The notes under the pieces were generated by a model, which ran no database searches, was not told where the DNA came from, and saw nothing but the letters and a program-made list of their open reading frames with translations. Shown here in pieces: positions 1,606 through 50,757 of a stretch of 64,000 nt of DNA (position 1 is its first letter; every line of letters starts with the position of its first letter). Source of the stretch: Candidatus Kerfeldbacteria bacterium. Its GTDB lineage: Bacteria > Patescibacteriota > Patescibacteriia > UBA10025 > JAHIVO01. Both the position numbers and the translations under genes were made by a program. The DNA is taken from contig CP181398.1 in NCBI GenBank assembly GCA_047946875.1, positions 1,169,329 through 1,233,328 of the forward strand. Reading direction: 5' to 3'.

Positions 1606-1842
1606 TTACAAGTTAGAGTAAAAATGGTAGCGGTCACCAAATATATCAGTTAAACCTTGGTGATGTATTATCTTGAATAGACATATCAAGACCGCTTTAT
1701 CTGTCTTGTTAGTAGGGTTATCGCCTGGGATGTTTATCGGTTTGCCTTTTATCACTGTGGCATACGAATAACATCCATAACGGAAATTAACCTCTACCAA
1801 GCGACCACGAAAACGTACCGTTTCTTTATCATACCAAGCCAT
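1606..1842 (-). CDS. hypothetical protein (78 aa)
   Basis: ORF track. GAGGG lies a few nt upstream of the ATG. A minus-strand TTGACA(1912-1917)-17 nt-TAAGTT(1889-1894) promoter-like sequence is present. No domain recognised. Confidence 0.4.
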   Translation of the reverse strand: MAWYDKETVRFRGRLVEVNFRYGCYSYATVIKGKPINIPGDNPTNKTDKAVLICLFKIIHHQGLTDIFGDRYHFYSNL

Positions 1843-2056
1843 ATTAGACCCTCTTGTAATGCGTTAAATTAAAAATGAGCGATTGATCAACTTACATCAA
1901 AACAAAAATATTGTCAAGGGGGGGCTAAAGAAATATCTAAAGTTTCTGCAAGAAACTCCATGTCATAGGCACTATCTAATTTGTGGTAAGTCATTTTTTT
2001 GACAAAAAATATATACCTGATATATTATATAATTAGAATAAGTAAATAAATATCAT

Positions 2057-3847
2057 ATGAGATTAAGAATAATTTTATCAACATTAGTCATTATCTTATT
2101 TATAGGTTGGCCGTTGACCGCTTTTTTGCGTTCAGCGCCTAATCAACCAATAAAACAAAACCTTTTGGACTCAGAGGTTAGTATTGAAAAATATATACAG
2201 ACGATGTTATATCCAAACACGCCATTCAAGGATTTTAATTCTGATGCTCCTTGGGTACATAGAGGAGGTTTGGATGAACAAATACCAATAATTTCATTTA
2301 TCAAGGATGCACATCTTGATAGTATAGGTTTGGATTATGTGGCTTTTTATAGATTGAATCCAGAGCAATTAGTAGCTGTTTATAATCCATCTGGTCTGGT
2401 AACTATAGATTCCCCTTTTTGGTATATAAGTCTCAATAACTTGACTCCGAATGATTTGGGATTAAATTACGGAGATGATCTGCAAATACGAATTAATATT
2501 AGGTTTAGGGATCAACTAATTTATCATACTTATAAATATTATCTTTCAATAGCTATACGTGGATCATTACCACAGCAGGATGGATGGTATCGTGGAGATA
2601 TCCATCATCATACTTTTTTTACTTCCGATATTTTTGAATACGGAGGATTTCCGGAATTTGACGTGAAAGCTGCAAAAGACATCGGTATGGATTGGATTGC
2701 TTTCACTGATCACTCTTATGATGTATCGGCTTCGGAGTGGGAAAATTTGAAAACTACTGCTCAAGAAAATTCAACCGACGATTTTATTGTACTTCCGGGT
2801 ATGGAATTTTCAGTTGATAATAACAATTCAAATGATTTGGTGGATGATAGAGTTCATTTGTTAGGATTGGGATTTGACAGTTGGATATCAGGACCTGATA
2901 TTGTTCCGGGATTTGATGTTTTTGGTTCACAACCAAGGGTTATGACAGATATTTTGGATGATATAGAAACACAAGGAGGAGTTTCATATGCAGCTCATCC
3001 ATTATCAGAAATTACAGCATTGTCAAACTGGGGATTTATTAAGCCTTGGTCATCTACTAATTATACCGAAGCATTCGATTATGAATCTTTTGTAGGAATG
3101 GAAATTTTTAACAGACGTCAGACGTCATTTAATAACACGGGAATTACAACTGACAATGTAAATCCATTCCCATGGAGTTTGAATTCCAATTGGGATACGG
3201 AATGGCAGGATGGAATTACTAAGTTCAATCAATTAGTAGGAGATAATTTGGACAGGAAAATATTTTTTTCCGGTGGTGCTGATGCACATGGAGATGCGAA
3301 TTTTGAAACAAGTAATAATTATGGATTGGTGGATGTTGCTGCAAATAACAATGCATTAGGTAAGGTTCATACAGTAGCTTATTTACCGAACGGTTTGAGC
3401 CAAGAAAACTTGTTATATGCATTAAAAAACGGCCATTCTATAGTAAGTGACGGGCCGTTAGTAAATATGAGTGTCAGAAGATCAGGGGGGTGTAGTAGCT
3501 GGACAGTAGGAAATATTGGAGATCGTATTAATTATAGTGGTAGTGACAAGTTATTAATTAGTGGGAAATCATCAGATGAATTCGGAGGATTGGAAACTGC
3601 TACAGTGCATATAATCAATTCGCTCGGACATAGTACGGAAAATTTTTCTTTCTCTGGAAATTATGATTTCCAAACATTATTATTATTTTCATTAAACCAA
3701 ACTGACACTTTCGCAGTTTGGACAGAAGTGGAAACCTCTTTAGGTTATAGGAGTTTTTCAAATCCTATTTGGTTTAATTTACCGGATTCCGCATTTAATT
3801 ATGATATTGTGGATCCATATCCGGTTGTTAATCAAAATTGTTATTAA
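2057..3847 (+). CDS. membrane-anchored PHP-domain (CehA/McbA-like) metal-dependent phosphoesterase
   Basis: ORF track, 596 aa. N-terminal hydrophobic anchor. PHP-type metal-ligand motifs GDIHHHT, AFTDHSY, HLLGLG, AAHP, GGADAHGD. TTGACA-type promoter upstream (~2000-2035). Confidence 0.75.
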   Translation: MRLRIILSTLVIILFIGWPLTAFLRSAPNQPIKQNLLDSEVSIEKYIQTMLYPNTPFKDFNSDAPWVHRGGLDEQIPIISFIKDAHLDSIGLDYVAFYRLNPEQLVAVYNPSGLVTIDSPFWYISLNNLTPNDLGLNYGDDLQIRINIRFRDQLIYHTYKYYLSIAIRGSLPQQDGWYRGDIHHHTFFTSDIFEYGGFPEFDVKAAKDIGMDWIAFTDHSYDVSASEWENLKTTAQENSTDDFIVLPGMEFSVDNNNSNDLVDDRVHLLGLGFDSWISGPDIVPGFDVFGSQPRVMTDILDDIETQGGVSYAAHPLSEITALSNWGFIKPWSSTNYTEAFDYESFVGMEIFNRRQTSFNNTGITTDNVNPFPWSLNSNWDTEWQDGITKFNQLVGDNLDRKIFFSGGADAHGDANFETSNNYGLVDVAANNNALGKVHTVAYLPNGLSQENLLYALKNGHSIVSDGPLVNMSVRRSGGCSSWTVGNIGDRINYSGSDKLLISGKSSDEFGGLETATVHIINSLGHSTENFSFSGNYDFQTLLLFSLNQTDTFAVWTEVETSLGYRSFSNPIWFNLPDSAFNYDIVDPYPVVNQNCY

Positions 3848-7066: not shown

Positions 7067-7267
7067 TTATTTATCTTTACACTCTTTGAATATTGTGTCA
7101 CTAGTGCAATCAATATTAGTGCATGGCACCAGTACGCTTAAGCAACTGTCGTCCATTTTGCATTCTTGTTCATTTAATTCAGAGCAAGTTTTACTTCCGG
7201 TAAACAGTATCACGGCGCCAATGATTAATATGATTATGACAATTATTATAATTATATTTTTATTCAT
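7067..7267 (-). CDS. small membrane-anchored cysteine-rich protein
   Basis: ORF track 7067-7294. Probable start at the internal MNKNIIII (7267). Six Cys in the exposed part. Confidence 0.5.
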   Translation of the reverse strand: MNKNIIIIIVIIILIIGAVILFTGSKTCSELNEQECKMDDSCLSVLVPCTNIDCTSDTIFKECKDK

Positions 7268-7275
7268 ATTTTTTC

Positions 7276-7479
7276 TTATAAATCTAAAATCCATTCCAGC
7301 AGTTCAATTTGTTTTTCCAGTAATTTTTTCTTATATTTCATTTTAATTTTCCAATCTTTTTCGAAAGAATGGCTATCTTCATCAACTTCCTCTTCCATTT
7401 CTTCTACTTCCTCGTTAATTTCTTCCAGTTCTAATTCCAATTCATCTAATTTGTCTGTAATTTGTTCTTGATTTTTCAT
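7276..7479 (-). CDS. small acidic coiled-coil protein (67 aa)
   Basis: ORF track. E/D-rich heptad-like sequence. Confidence 0.45.
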   Translation of the reverse strand: MKNQEQITDKLDELELELEEINEEVEEMEEEVDEDSHSFEKDWKIKMKYKKKLLEKQIELLEWILDL

Positions 7480-7491
7480 ATTTTTTAAAAA

Positions 7492-8376
7492 TTAAAGCTC
7501 TGTAATATAGGTAACAAATATTTCATTATTATCAACTGGATTTATAATTCCTTGCACTATTACAGTTGAGTCTTCATCGAAGAGGTTATTAGTCATGGCA
7601 TCTGTACATTTTGGACGGCTGAAACCTTTTATACATGTACTAATAAAGTCCATAGTATCAAATGTCAATTTTTTATTTAAGGCTGGGCTACCTGGTTCAT
7701 CCCATACTAAGTTCCAATAATTTTCACCGGCTGGTTGAGATAGGTTTCCGCTTTGTTCAAAATCAGTTACCAAAGGATTAATAAATTCAAAATTATTAAG
7801 CATATTTTCTTGAATGTTTGAGTTAGTAGTATTAAGTTCTTGGGTAGTTGAACCCCAAGAAATGCGGTACATATAATTATTATTTGTGACATAGACTGTG
7901 GCACCTGTATCATTCTCATGAGTGTTTCTGGTTAATTTTATGCCATTTTCACCATCAACTTTAATATTTGTTTTTTGATAACCGTCTTGTTCTAACAATC
8001 CAATCTCTGACCAGGTTTCCAATGTTTCACCTGATAGGTCGGCTACATAAATAAAAAAACTGGAATATTTGTAGTCAGATATATCAGCTACACTGGCAAA
8101 TGAGTTGGTGGCGGGTGGAGGAGGACCAGTTACTGCGTCCGGTATATAAAACCAACTGGTTGGATAATCAACTGTGAAATGATAGTTATTGTTGATGAAA
8201 GTTTTCCATTCTGTAACTTTATTTGTATTATTATTGGATATAGGGGAAATGTTTAGATTGGTATTGTCTTCCACATTTTGATCTTGGTTTACTAGATACC
8301 AGGTGAGTCCCCCGCCTAGAATTAAGATTACGAGTATTATAATGAAAATACTACTAACCCCATTTTGATGTTTCAT
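7492..8376 (-). CDS. N-terminally anchored surface protein (294 aa)
   Basis: ORF track. N-terminus MKHQNG + TM helix + N-rich linker. Confidence 0.75.
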   Translation of the reverse strand: MKHQNGVSSIFIIILVILILGGGLTWYLVNQDQNVEDNTNLNISPISNNNTNKVTEWKTFINNNYHFTVDYPTSWFYIPDAVTGPPPPATNSFASVADISDYKYSSFFIYVADLSGETLETWSEIGLLEQDGYQKTNIKVDGENGIKLTRNTHENDTGATVYVTNNNYMYRISWGSTTQELNTTNSNIQENMLNNFEFINPLVTDFEQSGNLSQPAGENYWNLVWDEPGSPALNKKLTFDTMDFISTCIKGFSRPKCTDAMTNNLFDEDSTVIVQGIINPVDNNEIFVTYITEL

Positions 8377-8384
8377 ATTTTTAA

Positions 8385-8954
8385 TTAATTTAATAAATTA
8401 TCTAAGTTTGTACAGTCTAGATATTCATCGTCCGTACAGCAACTTACATTATCATAGGTGCCGTCGGCTCTGTTGCACCAAGGTTGGTCAGAAGAACACT
8501 TTATTATTACTTTTTTTGTATCTTTATAAATAATTTTTTGTGGCCAAGACCACTCACAATAAAATTCTGCAGTTTGATCAATTTCACTATTAATGTTTGT
8601 TGTAACGGTATTAGTGTTGATTGTAGTATTTACATTTATTATAGCCTTATTAACATTAGTAGTGGTATTAATATTTATTACTTTTTCATCATCCTCTTTC
8701 TCTATTTCAATATTTGTTATATCTGCGATGATTTCATCTAATTCTTTTTGGGTTGGATCAAATCCTGTATCATTAGTACATTGTTCTGGACAATAGGTTT
8801 TGGATGAATCCATTATTAGTAAGTCATAACAAACCTCCATACATTTGGAGAATTGTCCTTTTTTTGTTACTCCACCTTGGGACCAGATCAATAACAAAAT
8901 CACACCAGCTATAATCACAATACCTAGGCTGATGAATATTTTCTTTTTATTCAT
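8385..8954 (-). CDS. N-terminally anchored Cys-rich surface protein with N/T-rich linker (189 aa)
   Basis: ORF track. Confidence 0.7.
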   Translation of the reverse strand: MNKKKIFISLGIVIIAGVILLLIWSQGGVTKKGQFSKCMEVCYDLLIMDSSKTYCPEQCTNDTGFDPTQKELDEIIADITNIEIEKEDDEKVININTTTNVNKAIINVNTTINTNTVTTNINSEIDQTAEFYCEWSWPQKIIYKDTKKVIIKCSSDQPWCNRADGTYDNVSCCTDDEYLDCTNLDNLLN

Positions 8955-9040: not shown

Positions 9041-9099
9041 TTAGATTTTGGGTATATGGTAGACTTACTTTGGTAGGTTATATTATTAAGATATTTATT
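9041..9099 (+). promoter_or_regulatory. conserved promoter/5'UTR module, copy c
   Basis: ttagattttgggtatatggtagacttactttggtaggttatattattaagatatttatt then ATG at 9100. Confidence 0.55.
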
Positions 9100-10212
9100 A
9101 TGAAAAATAAAACAATATTTATTGGATTTATAATAGGTGTAGGTATTTTACTATTGGCTGTGATTGGGAATTATTTTAGTAAGGATAATATGACGAAGGA
9201 TGAAGGTATTTTTTCAAATGTTGTCCAAGATAACATAATACAAAGTAACATTAATATATTAGAGGTATCAGATGTGCCAGAAGACTGTGATGTTGTTTTT
9301 ACCCATCGGTTTACAGATATTACAAAAATCAATGCTATCCAGCCAATTGGCTCTATCACCGGCGCTTCTCCTGGTCGTAGTTATTTGGATATTAAAGAAG
9401 GAGAAACTGTCCCGGTATACGCCCCAATGGATGCCACATTAAAATTTATTGCATATTCATATCGTGGCCCAGAGGCGCCTTACCCAGAATATGGTTTTAG
9501 TTTTGATACTGGTTGTGGGGTAACTTTTATGTTAGATCATTTGGACACAATATCGGATGAATTAAAGCAATATGCGCCTATTGAGCCTTCACTAGCAACT
9601 GACGGTACTAATAATCTTTCGGTTGAGGTTGAGGCGGGAACACTTCTGGGATATACTGATGGAACAGAACAGGCTAAAACTTTTGACTTTTTGGTAATAG
9701 ATAAAAATACTGACGTTTTTCATATTAATCCGGAACGATGGGACTGGGATCAAGCGTTGCATGCTGTCTGTCCGTATGATCTATATACAGATGATTTGAA
9801 AAGTGAGTATTATGAAAAAATTGGGACATATTATTACACAGGATTTGTAAAAGCAGAGAGCTGTGGTAATCCATCATACGATATTGTTGGAACAATTTCC
9901 GGTGGGTGGTTTTTGGGAGAAAACGATACGATGATGACTGGTGAGTTTATGACAATTGGCGAGGAGGGTGGTAATGTGTACACAATTGTCAAAAATAATC
10001 TGGAAGATGTAATAATACGCGTGGATGATTACTGGACAGAAGTCATGCCAAAAGATGTTAAGGTTGGGAGTTCAGCATGCTATTTTGACAACAACACAGA
10101 TACTTGGATGTTTTTGAATTTAGTAAGTGAAGAAACCATCCAGCTTGCAAATGGAAATGGGAATTGTCCTGTAGAGTTTCCAGATTCTAATATAAAGATT
10201 TATTCGAGATAG
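9100..10212 (+). CDS. N-terminally anchored surface protein (about 370 aa)
   Basis: ORF track 9070-10212. ATG at 9100 (MKNKTIFIGF...) preferred by analogy with modules a and b. No confident domain. Confidence 0.75.
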   Translation: MKNKTIFIGFIIGVGILLLAVIGNYFSKDNMTKDEGIFSNVVQDNIIQSNINILEVSDVPEDCDVVFTHRFTDITKINAIQPIGSITGASPGRSYLDIKEGETVPVYAPMDATLKFIAYSYRGPEAPYPEYGFSFDTGCGVTFMLDHLDTISDELKQYAPIEPSLATDGTNNLSVEVEAGTLLGYTDGTEQAKTFDFLVIDKNTDVFHINPERWDWDQALHAVCPYDLYTDDLKSEYYEKIGTYYYTGFVKAESCGNPSYDIVGTISGGWFLGENDTMMTGEFMTIGEEGGNVYTIVKNNLEDVIIRVDDYWTEVMPKDVKVGSSACYFDNNTDTWMFLNLVSEETIQLANGNGNCPVEFPDSNIKIYSR

Positions 10213-11968: not shown

Positions 11969-12112
11969 CACGTTGATTTTACATTCCAGGTTACGTATCT
12001 CCGCATTCGCGAATTTACTCCACCTTTCATGTAAATCTGCCTTTCCTCACACATCTGTGCTCATTTTATTGCGCTCCTGATGTGTTCGGGATGTTTAATG
12101 TAAAAAATCAGT
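11969..12112 (-). ncRNA. tRNA-proximal structured spacer element, divergent copy L1 (tRNA-Leu to tRNA-His)
   Basis: GAGGAAAGG purine tract. P1 GATTTACAT / ATGTAAAATC. GGTGGAG...ACGTAACC core. Ends AACG before the tRNA. Confidence 0.45.
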
Positions 12113-15172: not shown

Positions 15173-16045
15173 TTAGTATATTGCCAGCATAAATACACCA
15201 TCGGCAGGATTTTCATCTTTATCATGTTCCCAAACTAAAACGGTATTTGGATCAGATGCATGAGGAGCAGCGCCAATTAATCTAATAGCAACAGCACCGC
15301 CTGTACCACTTGGAGTAGCGATGTAAGCTCTAGTTGGTGTACCTGAACCATTATTTACAGCAAAATTGAAAGTTACTTCATATCTACCATTGCCAGTATT
15401 TGTGGCAGCAGTAGCATTATATCCACTAGTTAACGTACCTCCTGAACTAACATAGGCCCATCCTTTTAATGCTCCTTCAGCAGATACGGCCTGGGTGATG
15501 TTACCAGTAGTAGTGACTGTGTCAATACTAAGATCGGCAGTTGAGGATATATCGCTTCCAGTGATGGTTCCATCGACAATTTTAGCTGAGGTAATTGCAT
15601 TATCAGCAATGTCAGCGGTGGCAATTGTAGCATCAGTAATATTGTCAGATGTTACTATCCCAGTACCAAGTAAACTTGCTACTGTTAATGATCCAGTAAC
15701 TTCCATATTGTCATTGACAATAAATGGCATTGAATCTGCAGTACCAGCTGTTGCTCCGCGAAAAACACGTCCATCTATACGGACGTTATCACCAAAAGTA
15801 ACGGGATTGTCTACTCCGGCGTTTGTTGTGGTATTGATTATAGATCCATTGAAGTAGGTTACTCCACCTACACCCTGTTCACCGATCATCGTTGATCTCA
15901 TTTTCATTGTCCCATCTACTTGAAATATGTCTCCTTCTGGTCCAAATTGTGAAGTGACATTGTGACTAGTTGCAGCATTGACTATCCCAGCTGTCAAAGC
16001 AATAGAAGCAACTACCACTACGAGGGTTAAAAGCTTTTTTTTCAT
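15173..16045 (-). CDS. secreted fibre-like protein, paralogue B
   Basis: ORF track, 290 aa. Signal peptide VNA-A. The N-terminal ~145 aa are almost identical to paralogue C. I-x-D-x-x-I-T repeat stalk. Unique C-terminal domain. Confidence 0.8.
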   Translation of the reverse strand: MKKKLLTLVVVVASIALTAGIVNAATSHNVTSQFGPEGDIFQVDGTMKMRSTMIGEQGVGGVTYFNGSIINTTTNAGVDNPVTFGDNVRIDGRVFRGATAGTADSMPFIVNDNMEVTGSLTVASLLGTGIVTSDNITDATIATADIADNAITSAKIVDGTITGSDISSTADLSIDTVTTTGNITQAVSAEGALKGWAYVSSGGTLTSGYNATAATNTGNGRYEVTFNFAVNNGSGTPTRAYIATPSGTGGAVAIRLIGAAPHASDPNTVLVWEHDKDENPADGVFMLAIY

Positions 16046-16114
16046 AGGCCTTTTCCTTGTTTAGTTGTTAAATTGATAAATAATCACGATTTTATTATAC
16101 CCTTTTTTTGATAA

Positions 16115-16151
16115 ACAAAAAACCGCCCTAGTTGATAGAGGCGGTTTTTTC
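16115..16151. terminator. bidirectional hairpin terminator after fibre paralogue C
   Basis: AACCGCC (16121-16127) / GGCGGTT (16140-16146) flanked by an A-run and a T-run. Confidence 0.65.
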
Positions 16152-16159
16152 AAAAGTTT

Positions 16160-17077
16160 TTACATTTCGTAAATTATAAAACTAAATGAAGTTTGGCCAG
16201 CTGACCCGGTAGATTCGTCTACAAAATCAACAGTAAAATGATCATTTACGCTATTTGTAGCCGGAATAAATCCAGAATTTATCGGTGTAACAACCGCTAC
16301 ATGAGTAAGATAAGAATAAGTTACCCCAGTAATAGTAATTTCATATTGATTACTACCACCGTCCCAGGAACAAGCTATGTTACTGGTACCACCTCTATCA
16401 GAGCCATCTGAATTACAATAACCATAGGCAATAGGCAGATTGGCACCGCCCGTACCATTGATCTTGTCAGGTGTTATAGCGTCATCAGCTACATCTGCTG
16501 TAGCAATAGTTCCGTCTGTAATTTTTGAACTAATTATTGAGTTACTGGCTAAATCTCCAGATACAATAGTTCCGTCTGTAATTTTAGCTGAGGTAATAGC
16601 ATCATCATCAATTTTTGCAGTTGTAATTACGCTATCAGCTATGTCTGCTGTAGCTATAGTAGCGTCAGTAATATTGTCAGATGTTACTATCCCGGTACCA
16701 AGTAAACTTGCTACTGTTAATGATCCAGTAACTTCCATATTGTCGTTGACGATAAAAGGTTGAGTGTCTCCTGTTCCGGCAGTTGCTCCGCGAAAAACAC
16801 GTCCGTCAATACGAACATTATCACCAAAAGTTACGGGATTGTCTACACCGGAGTTTGTAGTGGCATTGATTATAGATCCATTGAAGTAAGTTACTCCACC
16901 AACACCTTGTTCACCGATCATAACTGATCTCATGTTCATTGTTCCATCTACTTGAAATATGTCTCCTTCTGGTCCAAATTGTGAAGTGACATTGTGACTA
17001 GTTGCTGCGTTGACTATCCCAGCTGTCAAAGCAATAGAAGCAACTACCACTACGAGGGTTAAAAGCTTTTTTTTCAT
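16160..17077 (-). CDS. secreted fibre-like protein, paralogue C
   Basis: ORF track, 305 aa. Longer I-x-D-x-x-I-T repeat stalk. Unique Cys-containing C-terminal domain. Confidence 0.8.
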   Translation of the reverse strand: MKKKLLTLVVVVASIALTAGIVNAATSHNVTSQFGPEGDIFQVDGTMNMRSVMIGEQGVGGVTYFNGSIINATTNSGVDNPVTFGDNVRIDGRVFRGATAGTGDTQPFIVNDNMEVTGSLTVASLLGTGIVTSDNITDATIATADIADSVITTAKIDDDAITSAKITDGTIVSGDLASNSIISSKITDGTIATADVADDAITPDKINGTGGANLPIAYGYCNSDGSDRGGTSNIACSWDGGSNQYEITITGVTYSYLTHVAVVTPINSGFIPATNSVNDHFTVDFVDESTGSAGQTSFSFIIYEM

Positions 17078-17108: not shown

Positions 17109-18332
17109 TTAAATAGTTGAGAATGAATTAACTACGGCTTCAAAATCTATAGAATCAGAACTACCTTCATCATATGGCCAATGAGAAAAATCAAAGTAAG
17201 TATTGCCGTTGAAATAATAATAGTTTAGAGTAGTGCCATCAGCTCCTGCCGCACTCATAGTAAAACGTGTCATATTCAATCCATTTCTAACAACATTTTG
17301 TTGAATAATCGGAACGTCATAGACATCTACGTCTTCTATCATAGCATTGAGAAATTCTTCAGCCGTGGTAGCGCCGGCATCTTCAGTAATATCACCACAG
17401 CGGATAAAAAATTGATGACCTAAGGCATATACTTCAGTTGCACCTATACTAGGAAGTGTGGCTGTTTTTAAGAAAAATATACTGGAAGTCATATCATGAG
17501 CGTACCATCCAGTAGGAAGATTTATATTATAACCACAGTCAGTATTCTCATATATTGAGCTCACTTCAACTTCATCAATTACTATCCATTCAAAAGTCGA
17601 AAGGATTGTTTTAGACGTATCAAATTCGGAAACTCCATCAAGTCCGGCCACATCATCTGGATCATCAAAAGCCGCATATATATCATGTCCATTAATTATG
17701 TTTGGAGATAAGCCAGTACTTAGATAAAAGATGTCTTGAATAATTCCATCATAAGTTATGTAGGTAATAGGTATTGATGTATCTCCTAGCATAGTACTGC
17801 CTTCATCAGTTATGTCCCCGGCTCCAATTCCACTGCGCCAAAAAGCGCCAACTTCTTCTCCTGTTATTCGGACGCCAAAATAAGTTATATATTCCCCGCC
17901 AGGTGAGATAAATTTAATATAACGATTTTGCCATCCACCAACCGAGTCTTCAGCTGAGATGTCGACTTCTTCAATCGTCCAGTCTGGTGGGTACATCATC
18001 TGATAGTTATACCAATCATTAGTATAAGTTAACCATCCAGAAGTATTATCGACGGCTGAATTTACGTTTGTTGTTGCATTTATATTAGTTGCCGGTTCGA
18101 GATTAGTATTAATAATATCAGTAGCCTCATTAGTTCCTACCGTTGTATTAATATTTAAAGCAGTGTTCGTGTTAATATTGCTAAATGTAACATTTGCCAG
18201 TGGAGCGGTATTGGTATTTATTGATTCATCATTATTGGCATAAAAATACCAAGCAACTCCCACTAATAAAATAGCAATAGCCAATATAGTAATGATTATT
18301 GTTGTATTAATAATCCCCCTTTGATTATTCAT
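17109..18332 (-). CDS. N-terminally anchored surface protein with N/T-rich linker (407 aa)
   Basis: ORF track. N-terminus MNNQRG + TM helix. Confidence 0.75.
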   Translation of the reverse strand: MNNQRGIINTTIIITILAIAILLVGVAWYFYANNDESINTNTAPLANVTFSNINTNTALNINTTVGTNEATDIINTNLEPATNINATTNVNSAVDNTSGWLTYTNDWYNYQMMYPPDWTIEEVDISAEDSVGGWQNRYIKFISPGGEYITYFGVRITGEEVGAFWRSGIGAGDITDEGSTMLGDTSIPITYITYDGIIQDIFYLSTGLSPNIINGHDIYAAFDDPDDVAGLDGVSEFDTSKTILSTFEWIVIDEVEVSSIYENTDCGYNINLPTGWYAHDMTSSIFFLKTATLPSIGATEVYALGHQFFIRCGDITEDAGATTAEEFLNAMIEDVDVYDVPIIQQNVVRNGLNMTRFTMSAAGADGTTLNYYYFNGNTYFDFSHWPYDEGSSDSIDFEAVVNSFSTI

Positions 18333-18919: not shown

Positions 18920-19041
18920 GCGTCGATATAATATTTTTGGTTACGTTTTCAGCTTTCGCTGCTAATTCCACCGCTCATATCATTTCTCCTTTCCTCGCAG
19001 AACGGTATCGTTCAGCTCGGTATTATTTATTATAGGAATGG
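18920..19041 (-). ncRNA. tRNA-proximal structured spacer element, copy L2 (before tRNA-Lys)
   Basis: rc: ...GAACGATACCGTTC..GAGGAAAGGAGAAATGATATGAGCGGTGGAATTAGCAGCGAAAGCTGAAAACGTAACCAAAAATATTATATCGACG then the tRNA. Confidence 0.55.
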
Positions 19042-19202
19042 TACCCTCGAGAGCCCCGCTTTGAGCGGGATCTTCGAGAATCTCCGCCCAAGGCGGATGC
19101 GCCTATGGCGCAGAACCTTAAGTTTAAAAGATTGTTTATCCACGGCTCCCGCCCGCAACGCTAAAGCGTAGCTTTGGCGGGCGTGGTAGAAGGCCGTTGT
19201 TC
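19042..19202 (-). pseudogene. old tRNA-Arg 3' portion (nt 22 to 3' end) broken by about four insertions
   Basis: Matching blocks taccctcgaga / ttcgaga / aacct / atccacgg / tagaaggccgttgttc are separated by GC hairpins (19053-19072, 19080-19113, 19146-19186) and an AT-rich 19-mer (19119-19137). Track ORF 19030-19251 is spurious. Confidence 0.75.
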
Positions 19203-19311
19203 CCCGTCTGCCATCGCCAATACCCTCGAGAGGAATCGAACCTCTATCCACGGCTTAGAAGGCCGTTGTTCTATCCGTTGAACTACAAGGGCAATGGCAA
19301 TGGCGGGCAGG
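19203..19311 (-). mobile_element. 109-bp imperfect-IR-flanked unit carrying a complete tRNA-Arg, nested in the older tRNA-Arg
   Basis: cccgtctgccatcgccaa / tRNA / aatggcaatggcgggcagg. The flanks are imperfect inverted repeats (13 of 18 by my alignment). Confidence 0.45.
19221..19292 (-). tRNA. tRNA-Arg (TCT), no encoded CCA
   Basis: rc: GCCCTTG TA GTTC AACGGATA GAAC A ACGGC CTTCTAA GCCGT GGAT AGAGG TTCGATT CCTCT CGAGGGT A. Two G-U pairs in the acceptor stem. Confidence 0.85.
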
Positions 19312-19362
19312 TATCCGTTGTCAGGCAGAGCCTGATCCGGCTTTGCCGGAAACTACAAGGGC
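19312..19362 (-). pseudogene. old tRNA-Arg 5' portion (nt 1-21) with a 30-nt GC hairpin insertion
   Basis: tatccgttg[tcaggcagagcctgatccggctttgccgga]aactacaagggc. Directly abuts spacer element L3, as intact tRNAs do elsewhere. Confidence 0.75.
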
Positions 19363-19478
19363 GCGTCTAAATAATATTTTTGGTTACGTTTTCAGCTTTC
19401 GCTGCTAACTCCACCATTCATATCATTTCTCCTTTCCCCGCAGAACGGTATCGTTCAGCTCAATGTTATTAAATAATA
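19363..19478 (-). ncRNA. tRNA-proximal structured spacer element, copy L3
   Basis: Near-identical to L2: ...GGGGAAAGGAGAAATGATATGAATGGTGGAGTTAGCAGCGAAAGCTGAAAACGTAACCAAAAATATTATTTAGACGC. Confidence 0.55.
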
Positions 19479-19515: not shown

Positions 19516-20397
19516 CTAATTGCTGGTATATAGTTTGGTTGTGGTAATAAAGTTATGACCAAGTATTGATTGGATAGATTTGATGTCATAGCCCTGTTTT
19601 TTTAAATGAACTGCATATGCTTGGCGGAGTTTTTCGGGAGTAATATTATTACCTAGATTTGTTTTTTTTGAATATTTTTTTATGATTCTTTGGATGGTAC
19701 GTGGAGTTAGTTGATAAGTTTCTTTTTTAACAGTACTTAGTTGTCTTTTCTTAGCTTTATCATGCCTAATAAATAATGCATTAAATTTATCATTTCTTAT
19801 TTTTAGATATTCATGGACTGCATAACTAGCTTGATTTGATAAATTTAGAGAACGAGATTTTTTCTTACGTAAAATATTGATTGAGTTTGTACTGAAGTTT
19901 ATGTTTTCTTTTTTTAATGAAGCAAGCTCTGATACTTTGAGACCAGAGCATAACAGGAGTTCTAAGATTGCTTTGTCTCTTTTTTGGATAATCCCAGGAT
20001 TTTTTTCATGCAAGGGAGAAGATAATAGTAGATCGATATCTGATTCTTCGAGTGGTTTATAATGTTTTTTTATTTGCTTTTTAAGAACAATTTCCTTGAA
20101 TGGCAATGAATGAATATTTTTCTTCTTTAAATATTCCAAAAAGGATCTTAGGGCTATTAAATGATAGTTTTGTGTATTTATTTTTAATAACTCTTTTTTT
20201 TGATTACGTATAGTGCTTAAGTAGTTTTTGAATAAATCAATTTTTTCTTTGGTAATATCTGAAGCTTGCCTAATGTTGGATTGATTAAAAAAACGGTGAA
20301 GGTAGAAACTATAGTTATTTACAGTTTGTTTCGTAGTTTTTTTCTTTTGCTGAAGATATTCTAAGAAATTATTTAAATTTTTATTAATGTCATTCAT
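19516..20397 (-). CDS. tyrosine recombinase (XerC/D / phage-integrase family), divergent active-site residues
   Basis: SAM-like N-domain. Box I CSGLKVSEL (Lys where Arg is usual). Box II EKLRQAYAVHL...LGH...TKLYTS (Arg, His and Tyr recognisable; other His positions substituted). Confidence 0.8.
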   Translation of the reverse strand: MNDINKNLNNFLEYLQQKKKTTKQTVNNYSFYLHRFFNQSNIRQASDITKEKIDLFKNYLSTIRNQKKELLKINTQNYHLIALRSFLEYLKKKNIHSLPFKEIVLKKQIKKHYKPLEESDIDLLLSSPLHEKNPGIIQKRDKAILELLLCSGLKVSELASLKKENINFSTNSINILRKKKSRSLNLSNQASYAVHEYLKIRNDKFNALFIRHDKAKKRQLSTVKKETYQLTPRTIQRIIKKYSKKTNLGNNITPEKLRQAYAVHLKKQGYDIKSIQSILGHNFITTTKLYTSN

Positions 20398-45989: not shown

Positions 45990-46001
45990 TGGAGCGGCAA
46001 A
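45990..46001 (-). repeat. 12-nt duplicate of the tRNA-Gly(GCC) 3' end next to a GC hairpin
   Basis: tggagcggcaaa is identical to 46083-46094. Followed by ttccgctgagcgggat. Confidence 0.4.
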
Positions 46002-46082
46002 TTCCGCTGAGCGGGATGAGCTTTTAGTATTAAGTGAGATTAATTAATAATCTTAGAATAAAATTTATAAGTTAATTTGTAA

Positions 46083-46159
46083 TGGAGCGGCAAACCGGAC
46101 TCGAACCGGCGACCTTTTCCTTGGCAAGGAAACGCTCTAGCCAACTGAGCTACTGCCGC
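46083..46159 (-). tRNA. tRNA-Gly (GCC), CCA encoded
   Basis: rc: GCGGCAG TA GCTC AGTTGGCTA GAGC G TTTCC TTGCCAA GGAAA AGGTC GCCGG TTCGAGT CCGGT TTGCCGC T CCA. Confidence 0.9.
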
Positions 46160-46273
46160 GCGTCGAAATAGTTTTTCTGGCTCCGTTTCCAATCAAGATT
46201 GAAAACTGCACCATTTACACTATTTCTCCTTCTCCTCGTCCCGAACTGCGGGACTCGGTAAAGATTAATTTAG
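46160..46273 (-). ncRNA. tRNA-proximal structured spacer element, copy L4 (fills the tRNA-Cys to tRNA-Gly gap)
   Basis: rc: ..GTCCCGCAGTTCGGGAC GAGGAGAAGGA GAAATAGT GTAAAT GGTGCAGTTTTCAATCTTGATTGGAAACGGAGCC AGAAAA ACTATTTC GACGC. Confidence 0.6.
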
Positions 46274-46348
<75 letters not shown>

Positions 46349-46474
46349 ACAGCCAGATTAATAATATCTTATGTGCTGCTACGTAAAAATATAATACCAG
46401 AAAAATCATAATTTATCAAGAAGAATAGGTAATAAATATATGATTAAAAGTAAGTATTTAAGTAGTTAATTAAA

Positions 46475-46987
46475 TTATAATATTTCAATAGTGACATGTC
46501 TTATGCCCCATTGCTTTGCCTCTTCACGTGTTTCCATCCAGATGTCGGCTTTGTGCCAATATCTAGCAGCCATACGATCTTCTACAACAAATATTTTATT
46601 GCCAAAGTATTCAGGAAATCTAACACGAGTTCCAATTTTTAGGAAGTTAGCAGCGATAATACCATCTCTTACATGTGCTCCTGAGGCAGTTATAAATGGA
46701 TTACCCGATGTTTGGTCAGGTGTTGAAGAATATGCGGTCACAGGTATCACCATTGTTCTTATTGTTACTGGTTGAGGTCTATCTTCATTAATAGGTAGAC
46801 GGTTTAATGTATCAAATACATTAATTTCCCATTGTTTCGTAAATCTTGATTGGATTTCAGGATATTCAATCTCTATTAGGCTTGTTTGAGCTACTACCTG
46901 TTGAGGGAAGGAATATTGCCAAAATATGATAGTTAATACAGCAAAGATAAGTGCTTTAGTTTTTACTGAATTGAATTTTAATTTCAT
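46475..46987 (-). CDS. 3D-domain (MltA/RlpA-like) cell-wall-binding protein
   Basis: VTAYSS.PDQTSGNPFITASG...GTRVRF...VVEDRMA...ADIWM. Confidence 0.8.
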   Translation of the reverse strand: MKLKFNSVKTKALIFAVLTIIFWQYSFPQQVVAQTSLIEIEYPEIQSRFTKQWEINVFDTLNRLPINEDRPQPVTIRTMVIPVTAYSSTPDQTSGNPFITASGAHVRDGIIAANFLKIGTRVRFPEYFGNKIFVVEDRMAARYWHKADIWMETREEAKQWGIRHVTIEIL

Positions 46988-47193
46988 AGTTAATTTAGTG
47001 GTAATTTAAGCTAATTTTAGCCTAAATGTATATAATTAGACCTATTTAATATTTATTGTTTATTAATAAATAGGTATCAAAAAACACCCTAACATAGGGT
47101 GCGTTTGATGGATCATCTTAGCATATAGGTTTATTGTGTCAAGGGGTATAGAAACATTAATAAAAAAACCTAACATATAGTTAGATTCTTTTG

Positions 47194-47268
47194 TGGAGCG
47201 GGTAAGGGGAATCGAACCCCTGTTTTCAGGTTGGAAACCTGACATAATAGCCATTATACGATACCCGC
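47194..47268 (-). tRNA. tRNA-Gly (TCC), CCA encoded
   Basis: rc: GCGGGTA TC GTAT AATGGCTAT TATG TCAGG TTTCCAA CCTGA AAAC AGGGG TTCGATT CCCCT TACCCGC T CCA. Terminator CTAAC..GTTAG+T7 downstream. Confidence 0.9.
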
Positions 47269-47374
47269 GCGCGTCGAAATAGTATTTCTGGTTCCGTTTC
47301 CAATTAAGATTGAAAACTGCACCCTATGCACTATTTCTCCTTTTCTCGTCCCGCACTGCGGGACTCGGTTGAGA
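47269..47374 (-). ncRNA. tRNA-proximal structured spacer element, copy L5
   Basis: rc: GTCCCGCAGTGCGGGAC GAGAAAAGGA GAAATAGT GCATAG GGTGCAGTTTTCAATCTTAATTGGAAACGGAACC AGAAAT ACTATTTC GACGCGC. Confidence 0.6.
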
Positions 47375-47950
47375 CTAAGTTATTAAAGTTATTCCTTTTG
47401 AAGCAAGAATGGTTACCAATAAAGTGAATGACATATCTCCTAGAGTGATTATGATCAGCATCTTTTTAGGAGGATATTTTATAGCTGCAAGGAATAGTAT
47501 TAGAATGTCATTTGGTAGAGGTGTAAATCCAATATAAATATATGATATTAAAGGAATTGCTTTTTCTAACCATTTTCTTTTTTTAAAGAAGTGCGCAACT
47601 TTATCAATTCTTTCTGTCCACTTTTCATTTATTAGTTCTCGTCCTTTAGAACCTGCATAAAACATTATCATATCGCCAATTGCAAGTCCAATGCCAGATA
47701 CTAATCCCAAGTAAATTGGATCCATGCCTCCGACTACAAGTGTAATAATAAGACTAATGAAGGAGATTGATCCACCAGCAGAAAAACCACCAAACAATGA
47801 AACAAAGAATGCAAGGATGTATCCATTTTGTACACCTATTTTATCTACTATCTCTTCTGGACTGATAAAATATAAAAGGGCGGTCAGTAATATCAAAAAT
47901 ATGACTAGGATTGAAAAAATTATTATTTTTTTTCTATAATTTTCTATCAT
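47375..47950 (-). CDS. DedA/YqaA-like (VTT-domain) integral membrane protein
   Basis: ORF track. Multi-TM with G-rich reentrant-looking segments. Family assignment tentative. Confidence 0.55.
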   Translation of the reverse strand: MIENYRKKIIIFSILVIFLILLTALLYFISPEEIVDKIGVQNGYILAFFVSLFGGFSAGGSISFISLIITLVVGGMDPIYLGLVSGIGLAIGDMIMFYAGSKGRELINEKWTERIDKVAHFFKKRKWLEKAIPLISYIYIGFTPLPNDILILFLAAIKYPPKKMLIIITLGDMSFTLLVTILASKGITLIT

Positions 47951-47966
47951 ATTTTAATTAACATTG

Positions 47967-48293
47967 CTATGGTTGCCAGAGATACTTATTAAGATCTATA
48001 AAATAACTCTCCTCTTTCTTAATAACTTTTACATTTTCTTTTCTTAGAAGTGTTGCTTGTACATTAGCTGAATGTTCTCTACAAGTTGTACTGATTCTTC
48101 CTTCACGATTAATAATTCTTTGCCAAGGTGTTTCTTTTAGTAAATTGTCCGGTAATATATGTAGGGCCCAGCCAACTTGCCTGGCAGCGCGTGGAGAACC
48201 AATCAACGCAGCAATTTGTCCATAAGTAGCAACTTTGCCTCGTGGTACTTTTTTGGTTAGTCTGTAAACTTTTTGAAAGAAATTTAAGGACAT
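47967..48293 (-). CDS. alkyltransferase-like (ATL) protein, an MGMT DNA-binding-domain family member lacking the acceptor Cys
   Basis: Real start MSLNFFQKVY (48293); the track ORF is extended over tRNA DNA. VPRGKVATYGQIA...PWQRIIN (Trp in place of the PCHRV Cys). Confidence 0.8.
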   Translation of the reverse strand: MSLNFFQKVYRLTKKVPRGKVATYGQIAALIGSPRAARQVGWALHILPDNLLKETPWQRIINREGRISTTCREHSANVQATLLRKENVKVIKKEESYFIDLNKYLWQP

Positions 48294-48314
48294 AGATATT
48301 GTTTCTAAACAGTG

Positions 48315-48363
48315 TTGGGATGGCGAGACTCGAACTCGCGACCCCTCGCTCCCAAAGCGAGTG
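48315..48363 (-). pseudogene. old tRNA-Pro 3' portion (nt ~25 to 3' end)
   Basis: ttgggatggcgagactcgaactcgcgacccctcgctcccaaagcgagtg versus the intact tcggggtggcgagactcgaactcgcgacccctcgctcccaaagcgagtg. Confidence 0.8.
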
Positions 48364-48511
48364 ATAGTTAGTATTAATACATCTAAGTCGGGGTGGCGAG
48401 ACTCGAACTCGCGACCCCTCGCTCCCAAAGCGAGTGCGCTAGCCAACTGCGCTACACCCCGACACAGATGTATTACTAACTATTTTATTTTCAAGGTAAT
48501 GATTTTATTGG
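48364..48511 (-). mobile_element. 148-bp inverted-repeat-flanked unit carrying a complete tRNA-Pro, nested in the older tRNA-Pro
   Basis: IR-L atagttagtattaatacatct (48364-48384). IR-R agatgtattactaactat (48466-48483) is its reverse complement apart from a 3-nt indel. Confidence 0.5.
48388..48461 (-). tRNA. tRNA-Pro (TGG), no encoded CCA
   Basis: rc: CGGGGTG TA GCGC AGTTGGCTA GCGC A CTCGC TTTGGGA GCGAG GGGTC GCGAG TTCGAGT CTCGC CACCCCG A. Confidence 0.9.
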
Positions 48512-48549
48512 AAACTGCGCCTGCCTGCCGGTAGGCAGGCTACACCCCG
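48512..48549 (-). pseudogene. old tRNA-Pro 5' portion (nt 1-17) split by a 20-nt GC hairpin
   Basis: aaactgcgc[ctgcctgccggtaggcaggc]tacaccccg versus the intact ccaactgcgctacaccccg. Lies 25 nt after tRNA-Phe. Confidence 0.75.
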
Positions 48550-48574
48550 TAACTATATAGAAAGTTTGGTAAAA

Positions 48575-48646
48575 TGCCGCGGGGCGGAATCGAACCACCG
48601 ACGCAAGGATTTTCAGTCCTTCGCTCTACCCCTGAGCTACCGCGGC
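48575..48646 (-). tRNA. tRNA-Phe (GAA), no encoded CCA
   Basis: rc: GCCGCGG TA GCTC AGGGGTA GAGC G AAGGA CTGAAAA TCCTT GCGTC GGTGG TTCGATT CCGCC CCGCGGC A. Confidence 0.9.
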
Positions 48647-48758
48647 GCGTCGAAATGATACTTCAGGTTCCGTTTCCAACTGAAGTTGAAAACTGCACTC
48701 TTTATATCATTTCTCCTCTCCTCAATGAAGCTACGCTTCCTTTCGGTATAATTCTTAA
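48647..48758 (-). ncRNA. tRNA-proximal structured spacer element, copy L6 (fills the tRNA-Ile to tRNA-Phe gap)
   Basis: rc: ..GGAAGCGTAGCTTC..GAGGAGAGGA GAAATGATA TAAAGA GTGCAGTTTTCAACTTCAGTTGGAAACGGAACC TGAAG TATCATTTC GACGC. Confidence 0.6.
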
Positions 48759-48835
48759 TGGTGGGCGATCCAGGAGTTGAACCTGGGACCTCGTCATTAT
48801 CAGTGACGCGCTCTAACCAACTGAGCTAATCGCCC
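48759..48835 (-). tRNA. tRNA-Ile (GAT), CCA encoded
   Basis: rc: GGGCGAT TA GCTC AGTTGGTTA GAGC G CGTCA CTGATAA TGACG AGGTC CCAGG TTCAACT CCTGG ATCGCCC A CCA. Confidence 0.9.
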
Positions 48836-48882
48836 ATAAATTGTTAATTGTTATTTGTAAATGTTTTAAATATATCTGTATT

Positions 48883-48989
48883 CTAGGAGTTGATCAAATG
48901 TCGCGCTCCCCGCCCGTACCGAACGGGTACGTTCGGGCGGGTAACTTCATCCCGCCTGTTCTAGGCGGGGCAAGCTGAGCTAATCGCCC
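48883..48989 (-). pseudogene. decayed tRNA-Ile copy (5' third plus T-loop remnant) with two GC hairpins and an internal deletion
   Basis: ctaggagttga..gtcgcgctc[48908-48942 hairpin]aac[48946-48971 hairpin]aagctgagctaatcgccc versus the intact gene. The anticodon arm is missing. Confidence 0.7.
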
Positions 48990-49138: not shown

Positions 49139-49203
49139 TTAGCTTGTATAAAAATACAAACTACCGACCATTTTTAAGAGTAGAACTCTTAAAATGTATC
49201 TCC

Positions 49204-50696
<1,493 letters not shown>

Positions 50697-50757
50697 AAAA
50701 TGTGTAAGTACTGTTTTCATAAATGAACCACAGTACTAAAAATTGTAAAAAATTTTG

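Follow-up and report, generated by a model that had tools for sequence, protein, structure and literature searches.

A conserved double-hairpin RNA element of Patescibacteria and its placement at tRNA gene ends

On contig CP181398.1 of a Candidatus Kerfeldbacteria bacterium, the spacer between tRNA-Cys and tRNA-Gly(GCC) contains a structured sequence that recurs before other tRNA genes, raising the question of whether it serves the tRNA that it precedes or belongs to a repeat that spreads for itself. The stretch analyzed here (64,000 nucleotides, positions 1,169,329 to 1,233,328 of the contig) is referred to as the window. A preliminary description of the window had reported six copies and suggested, among other roles, a leader guiding or regulating tRNA 5' processing. 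We found that the sequence is a real, previously undescribed double-hairpin RNA element of Patescibacteria which, to judge from its sequence and distribution, behaves as a spreading repeat family and not as a per-tRNA signal.

Fold and constraint of the element

The minus strand of the window carries 11 tRNA genes and one 16S rRNA gene, as called by ARAGORN and Rfam. All six copies of the 100- to 125-nt element were recovered where the preliminary description had placed them, each on the minus strand and just 5' of a called tRNA or of a tRNA-Arg remnant, with the tail, GACGN, ending 0 to 2 nt before tRNA position +1 (Table 1). The spacing of 4 to 5 nt to the RNase P site reported earlier was accurate for most copies, in which P1 and +1 are 5 nt apart, but not for the Gly-TCC copy, in which the distance is 7 nt; this copy begins 6 nt past the stop codon of a VTT-domain gene and has two additional nucleotides (GC) before +1. 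The tail of the His copy reads CAACGU and stops directly before G-1 of tRNA-His.

On one strand, the element folds into a hairpin with tandem G.A pairs (P0), a purine tract (GAGGARAGGAGAAAU in the window copies), a rod comprising helices P1, P2, and P3, and the tail, which reads GACG in 27 of 28 aligned copies. Within the rod, P1 (9 to 10 bp) is followed by a 3x3 loop, mostly 5'-GAA/5'-GAA, then the 4-bp P2, a second 3x3 loop of the form 5'-GNA/5'-GN'A, and P3; the middle nucleotides N and N' of the second loop covary as C-G, G-U, U-G, and U-A. The sequence of the P0 stem is free to vary among copies while the flanking CC..GG and the tandem G.A positions are conserved. The P1 strands and inner hairpins had been quoted correctly in the preliminary description, and the GGUG motif that it assigned to every copy was present in all but the Phe copy, which has AGUG.

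Fold z-scores of the window copies ranged from -4.8 to -5.7, and none of 200 dinucleotide shuffles folded equally well. For degenerate patterns fitting five of the six copies, shuffled versions of the window gave an expectation of 0 matches. The six copies were used to build a covariance model, which scored them at 75 to 93 bits (E values of 1e-16 to 1e-21), and the next match on the same strand of the window fell below 12 bits. Compensatory changes in P1 and the apical hairpin, a claim of the earlier analysis, were borne out by RNAalifold and pair counts: double changes occurred at 8 of 23 pairs among the six copies, with the observed score reached by 0 of 500 shuffles. Among 28 distinct copies, 92.8% of cells were paired and both sides had changed at 18 of 23 pairs, scores that no shuffle reached, although these pairing figures lean towards structure since the alignment was fitted to the model; registers slid by 1 to 3 columns paired at only 34 to 46%. 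The helices contained 36 G.U against 11 A.C, indicating that the fold belongs to the element strand. The element is thus clearly a conserved fold under structural constraint, with genuine compensatory changes.

The AGGA just 5' of P1 could prolong this helix by pairing with the 3' GACG as A.G, G.A, G-C, and A.G. These tracts are too invariant for covariation, and by inspection the pairing is possible in all lineages, including those of the contigs L057, L237, and L239. It would explain the conservation of both tracts and would set the helix end 1 to 2 nt from the acceptor stem.

The element, which the preliminary description could not assign to a known family, matches no Rfam family. A scan of the whole window against Rfam 15 at the gathering threshold returned only tRNAs and 16S rRNA, and a scan of positions 46000 to 48900 at an E value of up to 10 gave no element match other than YrlA at 16.9 bits (gathering score, 69), which covers part of the Phe copy plus its tRNA. 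The literature searched holds no description of the element.

Table 1. Copies of the element and parts of the focal copy. Positions refer to the window unless L239 is named.
Feature	Position	Strand	Details
Focal copy, complete, between tRNA-Cys and tRNA-Gly-GCC	46160..46259	(-)	Minimum free energy -38.3 kcal/mol, z-score -5.66; covariance model 88 bits
tRNA-Gly(GCC), adjoined by focal copy	46083..46159	(-)	+1 at 46159; ARAGORN, Rfam
Copy 5' of tRNA-Gly(TCC)	47269..47369	(-)	Fold z-score, covariance model
Copy between tRNA-Ile and tRNA-Phe	48647..48747	(-)	Fold z-score, covariance model
Copy 5' of tRNA-Lys(CTT)	18920..19021	(-)	Fold z-score, covariance model
Copy at disrupted tRNA-Arg	19363..19464	(-)	Fold z-score, covariance model
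Copy between tRNA-Leu(GAG) and tRNA-His, most diverged in window	11970..12091	(-)	Fold z-score, covariance model
P0 hairpin, focal copy	46234..46258	(-)	CC-GA-(GUCCCG...CGGGAC)-GA-GG; folds of 30 copies
Purine tract just 5' of P1, focal copy	46227..46233	(-)	..AGAAGGA, part of conserved RAGGAGAAAU; consensus of 28 copies
Rod (P1-P2-P3), focal copy	46165..46226	(-)	Folds, pair counts
P1, focal copy	46219-46226 with 46165-46172	(-)	
P2, focal copy	46210-46213 with 46178-46181	(-)	
Symmetric loop, focal copy	46207-46209 opposite 46182-46184	(-)	GCA opposite GGA
P3, focal copy	46198-46206 with 46185-46193	(-)	
3' tail, focal copy	46160..46164	(-)	GACGC, ends at tRNA +1
Degenerate or truncated outer copies, L239	8810-8929, 11527-11691, 12592-12675, 9001-9073		

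Placement at tRNA gene ends and distribution among lineages

Species-representative genomes and metagenome contigs were scanned with degenerate patterns, and matches were confirmed with the covariance model. About 30 true copies were obtained, and about 17 more were found at loci reached through neighboring proteins (these contigs and loci carry L numbers below); in total, about 45 homologues were identified, all of them on Patescibacteria contigs. The pattern matches L011 and L019 were rejected as false positives at the starts of coding genes. Named records with the element were Patescibacteria group bacteria and Candidatus Jacksonbacteria. One 8-kb contig of a metagenome-assembled genome labeled Gammaproteobacteria also carries it, in the same gene order as the window, and the L19 protein of the window is closest to Patescibacteria and Kerfeldbacteria proteins. 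In the collections searched, the element is restricted to Patescibacteria.

Most copies end exactly at tRNA +1, before His, Gly-GCC, Gly-TCC, Gly-CCC, Phe, Lys, Arg, Met, Ile, Gln, and Val; as the search patterns were free of tRNA sequence, the association with tRNA genes is not an artifact of the search. The GACG end always faces the tRNA at a distance of 0 to 2 nt; it abuts +1 where element and tRNA share a strand, and the discriminator base, N73, where they lie on opposite strands. This second arrangement was found in L078, L084, and L101: the GACG end of the element meets the 3' end of a tRNA on the other strand, and the nucleotide following GACG complements the discriminator. In L239, a stretch of 5 kb holds ten intact copies, three of them sense at tRNA 5' ends and seven antisense at 3' ends, and one tRNA-Val has the element on both sides. 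The tRNAs with an element at the 3' end have no encoded CCA, and the two L239 tRNA-Gly genes with an encoded CCA have the element at the 5' end only. In-place inversion through the inverted repeats of acceptor stems was considered for the antisense copies; it is plausible for L101, whose Arg and Ala stems agree in 6 of 7 positions, though not for L078.

The boundary is not always that of an intact tRNA gene. In L083, two copies are joined to fragments of neighboring tRNA-Met genes which start at T-loop position 58. In L092, the element fills the 5' untranslated region of a monocistronic rpmA gene with a promoter-like site upstream, and the sequence runs GACGAC-AUG. A separate observation concerns L237, where a tRNA-like segment of about 55 nt at 7354-7408 (GGGGCCGG, two hairpins, and CCGGTCCACCA), which is not called by ARAGORN, is flanked by inward-facing copies at 7273-7353 (+) and 7413-7486 (-).

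Comparison of orthologous sites revealed insertion polymorphism. At the tRNA-Gly-TCC site, the element lies between a gene and the tRNA in L073, and the same gene and tRNA occur without it in L087 and L036. At the Ile/Phe site, L087 has the element before Ile, versus between Ile and Phe in the window and in L036. The nearest neighbors of copies come from the same genome or lineage and not from the same tRNA identity. Identity is 100% among three L239 copies, which adjoin Arg, Ala, and Lys, and 95% between the Gly-TCC copy of L067 and the Arg and Lys copies of the window, compared with only 78% for the adjacent orthologous gene. The three L239 copies share an identical core, but P0 differs in one of them, pointing to recombination or gene conversion among elements. 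In L239 (at 8358-8384, 8810-8836, and in other P0 regions), a GGGGNCCCC palindrome beside P0 bounds the unit on its outer side, and identity between copies ends right after it.

Decay was also apparent. Truncated and degenerate copies lie just outside intact tRNA-adjacent ones, on both sides of tRNAs (Table 1), and the second tRNA-Arg of L239 is adjoined by a degenerate copy. In L235, a decayed His copy scoring 25.9 bits occurs alongside a canonical Lys copy. The alternative that the similarity merely reflects recent duplication of tRNA-plus-flank modules therefore captures the spread and within-genome homogenization of the copies, but it neglects the structural constraint, and what spreads is the element rather than such modules.

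Within the window, transcription units were deduced from gene order and promoter-like sites. With the element denoted e, they are promoter-Cys-e-Gly, promoter-Ile-e-Phe-Pro, rplS-Leu-e-His, promoter-e-Arg...e-Lys, and VTT gene-e-Gly. The copy at the disrupted tRNA-Arg is preceded by a promoter-like site, TTGACT-17-TAATAT, at 19513-19485, and is followed by just nucleotides 1 to 12 of tRNA-Arg and then GC-rich hairpin insertions. Since the six copies are sense oriented within tRNA transcription units, they must be transcribed as 5' leaders or inter-tRNA spacers. By analogy with established bacterial tRNA maturation, RNase P would cut these copies off between GACGN and +1, freeing a stable structured RNA as a by-product.

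Spreading repeat or host function

How might one element come to lie at so many tRNA gene ends? Our tentative preference, at slightly less than even odds, is a self-propagating or homogenized structured repeat family that targets tRNA gene ends. Such a family matches the exact junctions on either side of tRNA genes, the stacked copies, the identity within genomes, the insertion polymorphism, and the occasional off-target copies. Each new copy would insert precisely at the boundary of a tRNA gene, its GACG end turned inward, and would push older copies outward, where they would decay. The tRNA boundary, which can be seen either as the acceptor-stem base or as the end of the mature RNA, would define the target. 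A putative trans-acting enzyme may use the conserved rod and tail as its handle, and the constraint on fold and loops would most simply be read as a requirement of the copying machinery.

Several findings weigh against this preference. The regions of up to 20 kb that were read around the copies showed no gene for a transposase, a reverse transcriptase, or any other protein in common; clustering of open reading frames (ORFs) within 4 kb of 31 copies returned only syntenic housekeeping genes, and Pfam searches of 40 window ORFs gave no reverse transcriptase, transposase, or HUH protein. The XerD-like recombinase gene recurring at the tRNA-Arg cluster was rejected as a linked gene, being a conserved housekeeping-type gene across the phylum. 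Terminal inverted repeats are absent, the 5' end (ACCGAG... or GGGGNCCCC...) differing from the 3' end (...CGACGN), and the palindromy of the element is internal, in P0 and the rod. There was no target-site duplication either in the comparison of filled L073 with empty L087 and L036 or in the flanks of the identical L239 copies. Two scans of IMG/VR with covariance-model checks yielded no copy (the loose scan gave at least 120 loci, of which 100 were checked), and a phage origin was rejected on this basis. Outside the L078, L084, L101, L237, and L239 contigs, every tRNA-adjacent copy is sense and 5'. The 95% identity of the element versus 78% for the gene at L067 could reflect purifying selection and not recent spread. 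The L19-tRNA-Leu-e-tRNA-His order is kept in five lineages (the window, L008, L100, L234, and L235) whose L19 proteins are 68 to 79% identical, and the non-Watson-Crick loop nucleotides and GACG tail are kept in lineages as distant as Jacksonbacteria. In streamlined genomes of about 1 Mb, this deep loop and tail conservation and the Leu-e-His synteny fit a host function equally well or better.

Which host function could this be? The dedicated 5'-processing leader of the preliminary description could not be upheld, as it fails on the antisense 3'-end copies, the copies joined to tRNA fragments, the rpmA 5' untranslated region, the absence of the element from orthologous sites, the clustering of copies by genome, and the stacks of decayed copies. 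A cis-acting element for tRNA maturation or expression, which would insulate the fold of the precursor tRNA or present a GACGN leader to RNase P and so tune 5' processing, is unlikely more generally. The exact spacing to +1 in about 25 copies, the His copy that stops before G-1, the cotranscription of all six window copies with their tRNA, and the Leu-e-His synteny are what it predicts, but close relatives have the same tRNA without the element, only a varying subset of tRNAs carries it, and copies persist beside disrupted or fragmentary tRNAs. Moreover, the antisense 3'-end copies keep the motifs on the element strand, placing their complement in the tRNA transcript, and one copy precedes an mRNA start codon. 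A greater though still rather low probability attaches to a functional, trans-acting, multicopy small RNA (sRNA) gene which uses tRNA transcription units for its expression. RNase P would set its precise ...GACGN 3' end, also by cutting at an antisense tRNA cloverleaf, and the freed rod would bind a conserved protein through its G.A-rich loops, comparable to 3'ETS-leuZ. Conserved loop nucleotides and tail, strong covariation, conservation far above that of flanking genes, and the survival of one or more canonical copies in each genome despite the decay of others all suit such an sRNA, as does a position that varies yet always ends at the start of a cloverleaf, cleavable by RNase P in either context; the two stable hairpins and short 3' tail are also predicted to resist exonucleases. 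The antisense copies (7 of 10 in L239) argue against it, lying inside same-strand tRNA clusters with no evident promoter of their own, so that most would yield no element-sense RNA. Few conserved single-stranded nucleotides would be left after AGGA/GACG pairing, and the arrival of new copies exactly at tRNA boundaries and the stacked remnants would go unexplained.

A retroposon-like RNA, the analog of a short interspersed nuclear element, copied through an RNA intermediate, is quite unlikely, although each type of junction falls, or could fall, at the end of a mature RNA or at a stop of reverse transcription. The +1 junction would be the RNase P product (G-1 for tRNA-His). The N73 junction of CCA-less tRNAs would involve a one-base microhomology, the last element base complementing N73, as might be expected, speculatively, if the tRNA 3' end acted as primer on the RNase P-generated ...GACGN 3' end of the element. 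T-loop position 58, where the two tRNA-Met fragments start, is presumably the 1-methyladenosine (m1A58) site, a known reverse transcription stop, and the junction 1 to 2 nt before the rpmA AUG is possibly the 5' end of a leaderless mRNA. Template switching by a reverse transcriptase between freed element RNA and mature tRNAs would give exactly such chimeras, the integration of which might, speculatively, be guided by tRNA homology. Diversity-generating retroelements and group II introns, both common in the candidate phyla radiation (CPR), could supply the reverse transcriptases.

We considered it improbable that the element acts as a ribosome-binding leader of the kind described as a stabilizing Shine-Dalgarno (STAB-SD) sequence in Bacillus (PMC4113751, PMC3997798). 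Here the GAAAGGAG tract, being exposed, would base-pair with the 3' tail of 16S rRNA, and a bound 30S subunit would protect the downstream RNA or couple to it; in L092 the element would be a split ribosome-binding site for rpmA. The tract, unpaired in the predicted minimum free energy folds, has 8-nt complementarity to the 16S 3' end, CACCUCCUUUCU, consistent with putative 30S binding, and in L092 the rod lies between AGGAG and GACGAC-AUG with no other Shine-Dalgarno (SD) motif for rpmA. Against this, the tract may pair instead with the GACG tail through tandem G.A pairs and one G-C, the antisense copies are left unexplained, and an SD motif (GGAG or GAGG within 20 nt 5' of the start codon) precedes just 4 of the 46 window ORFs of at least 114 amino acids, even though the 16S rRNA retains a canonical anti-SD. 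Translation initiation in this organism thus appears to be largely SD independent.

A self-cleaving ribozyme, riboswitch, or other known RNA class is highly improbable. The conserved internal-loop nucleotides near a processing site would be in keeping with one, but there was no Rfam match even at an E value of up to 10, the fold is a simple rod with 3x3 loops 4 bp apart and no junction or pseudoknot, and there is no expression platform. By inspection, likeness to a K-turn, bulge-helix-bulge, sarcin-ricin, signal recognition particle, or 5S motif was also rejected, the loops being symmetric 3x3 without a 3-nt bulge; the G-C and U-A pairs flanking the rod loops are Watson-Crick and covary. A small ORF behind the SD-like tract was discarded, as the frames (M-I-stop, M-stop, and longer runs) lack conservation and just 2 nt separate SD and AUG. 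A promoter inside the element for a leaderless tRNA was likewise discarded, since the copies have no -35/-10 hexamers conserved at a constant spacing to +1; promoter-like sites are located 5' of P0 or 5' of the preceding tRNA.

Returning to the spreading repeat family, the element may by analogy work most like repetitive extragenic palindromic (REP) elements and bacterial interspersed mosaic elements (BIMEs), MITEs (miniature inverted-repeat transposable elements), or mitochondrial double-hairpin elements, but the defining features looked for in these systems were absent. Like REP/BIME (RAYT/TnpA-REP) and IS200/IS605-derived elements, it is a short, noncoding, multicopy imperfect palindrome that would act as a single-strand hairpin. 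As in REP/BIME elements, the stems show compensatory changes, copies are homogenized within genomes, intergenic, and transcribed with their neighbors, and a mobilizing enzyme would be encoded elsewhere. REPs, however, are 20 to 40 nt long, species specific, and headed by GTAG, whereas the element is 100 to 125 nt long, with two hairpins, G.A loops, a deep range in Patescibacteria, and a position fixed against tRNA gene ends; there was no GTAG head and no HUH/Y1 transposase among the window ORFs or neighboring ORF clusters. The interleaving of both orientations within 5 kb of L239 is not predicted by a lagging-strand-specific mechanism, IS200/IS605-derived elements being expected to keep one orientation per replichore, and among annotated window ORFs no Pfam match to OrfB or TnpA, as expected for IS200/IS605 or TnpB omega-RNA, was found.

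Bacterial MITEs such as the Correia elements of Neisseria are similar in being about 100 to 150 bp long, nonautonomous, able to form hairpins in transcripts, and variably present (PMC10969869). They can likewise supply regulatory signals to neighboring genes, but where they target a short sequence, the element targets a boundary of structure or RNA (tRNA +1 or N73), and the terminal repeats and target duplication of MITEs were not seen. The mobile double-hairpin elements and GC clusters of fungal mitochondria are two-hairpin repeats of compact, AT-rich genomes that often lie beside tRNA genes; they are suspected to be mobile and may be incidental processing signals. The GC-rich hairpin insertions inside tRNA gene copies of the window resemble them, although their hosts belong to another domain of life, there is no sequence relation, and, to our knowledge, no rule orienting a GACG end towards the tRNA has been described for them. 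In Escherichia coli, 3'ETS-leuZ and ITS metZ-metW are single-locus, unstructured sponges cut from tRNA precursors by processing nucleases. The element would share with them excision from a tRNA precursor, and hence production in step with the tRNA, but it is multicopy, structured, mobile in position, and also antisense. Class C group II introns insert after terminator hairpins, and integron attC sites are recognized as hairpins, so that in both a folded single strand and not a sequence is read. Fold recognition of this kind would explain insertion at the acceptor-stem base on either strand. The element, however, has no ribozyme, intron-encoded protein, or R'/R'' core sites (GTTRRRY), and integron cassette arrays are unidirectional, unlike the element copies.

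The element adds a new conserved RNA fold to Patescibacteria, a phylum with almost no characterized noncoding RNAs that we know of. The rule by which a structured repeat places its GACG end against a tRNA gene boundary, from either side, is unprecedented, and the conservation is unusually deep among small nonautonomous structured repeats. A mechanism reading tRNA ends so precisely would be new for bacteria, be it structure-guided insertion into single-stranded DNA, reverse transcription that copies at the termini of mature RNAs, or selection for ends set by RNase P. The element would also help explain pseudo-tRNA fragments, split tRNA copies, and rearrangements of tRNA clusters in tiny genomes. 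Its copies will confound tRNA and operon annotation in CPR genomes and provide a marker for strain-level variation.

Neighboring tRNA remnants and other features of the window

The disrupted tRNA-Arg lies 3' of its element copy at 19041-19362 (-). It is an outer copy of tRNA-Arg(TCT) split by GC-rich hairpin insertions into nucleotides 1 to 12, part of the D-loop, the 5' anticodon-arm half, and the 3' end, CTCTCGAGGGTAC, and an intact tRNA-Arg (19220-19293) is nested within it. The XerD-like recombinase gene (19516-20397) is just upstream of this locus. An insertion of the same kind was observed at 48881-48989 (-), between the 16S gene and the real tRNA-Ile, in a pseudo-tRNA-Ile whose initial 19 nt (GGGCGATTAGCTCAGCTTG) precede some 64 nt of GC-rich hairpins in the D-loop and a degenerate remainder.

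Partial tRNA copies were also observed elsewhere. In L087, three tandem units of about 105 nt at 1712-2029 (-) separate the element from an intact tRNA-Gly-GCC, each unit opening with tRNA nucleotides 1 to 12, followed by a pair of GC-rich hairpins, CAGTTGG from the D-loop, and unrelated sequence. Similar partial tRNA duplications occur 3' of the element copies in L067 and L105. At 7110-7330 (-) of L036, the real tRNA-Ile and the element before tRNA-Phe are separated by two degenerate partial tRNA-Ile copies, which run from the anticodon arm to the 3' end. Directly 3' of tRNA-Pro in the window, a weak tRNA-like match at 48315-48386 (-), which scores 29.1 bits in Rfam, equal to the gathering score, and is not called by ARAGORN, may be a degenerate tRNA copy.

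Among ORFs of 290 to 596 amino acids, those at 17109-18332, 9070-10212, 2057-3847, and 15173-17077 had no Pfam match at an E value of up to 0.001; the ORFs lacking a match include one of 407 amino acids directly downstream of tRNA-Lys. The 16S rRNA gene (49208-50698) is followed by tRNA-Ile, tRNA-Phe, tRNA-Pro, and protein genes. No 23S gene was found in the 49 kb downstream of it, indicating that the rRNA genes are unlinked. The 16S 3' tail can pair with an AAGGAG that follows the gene (49200-49214).

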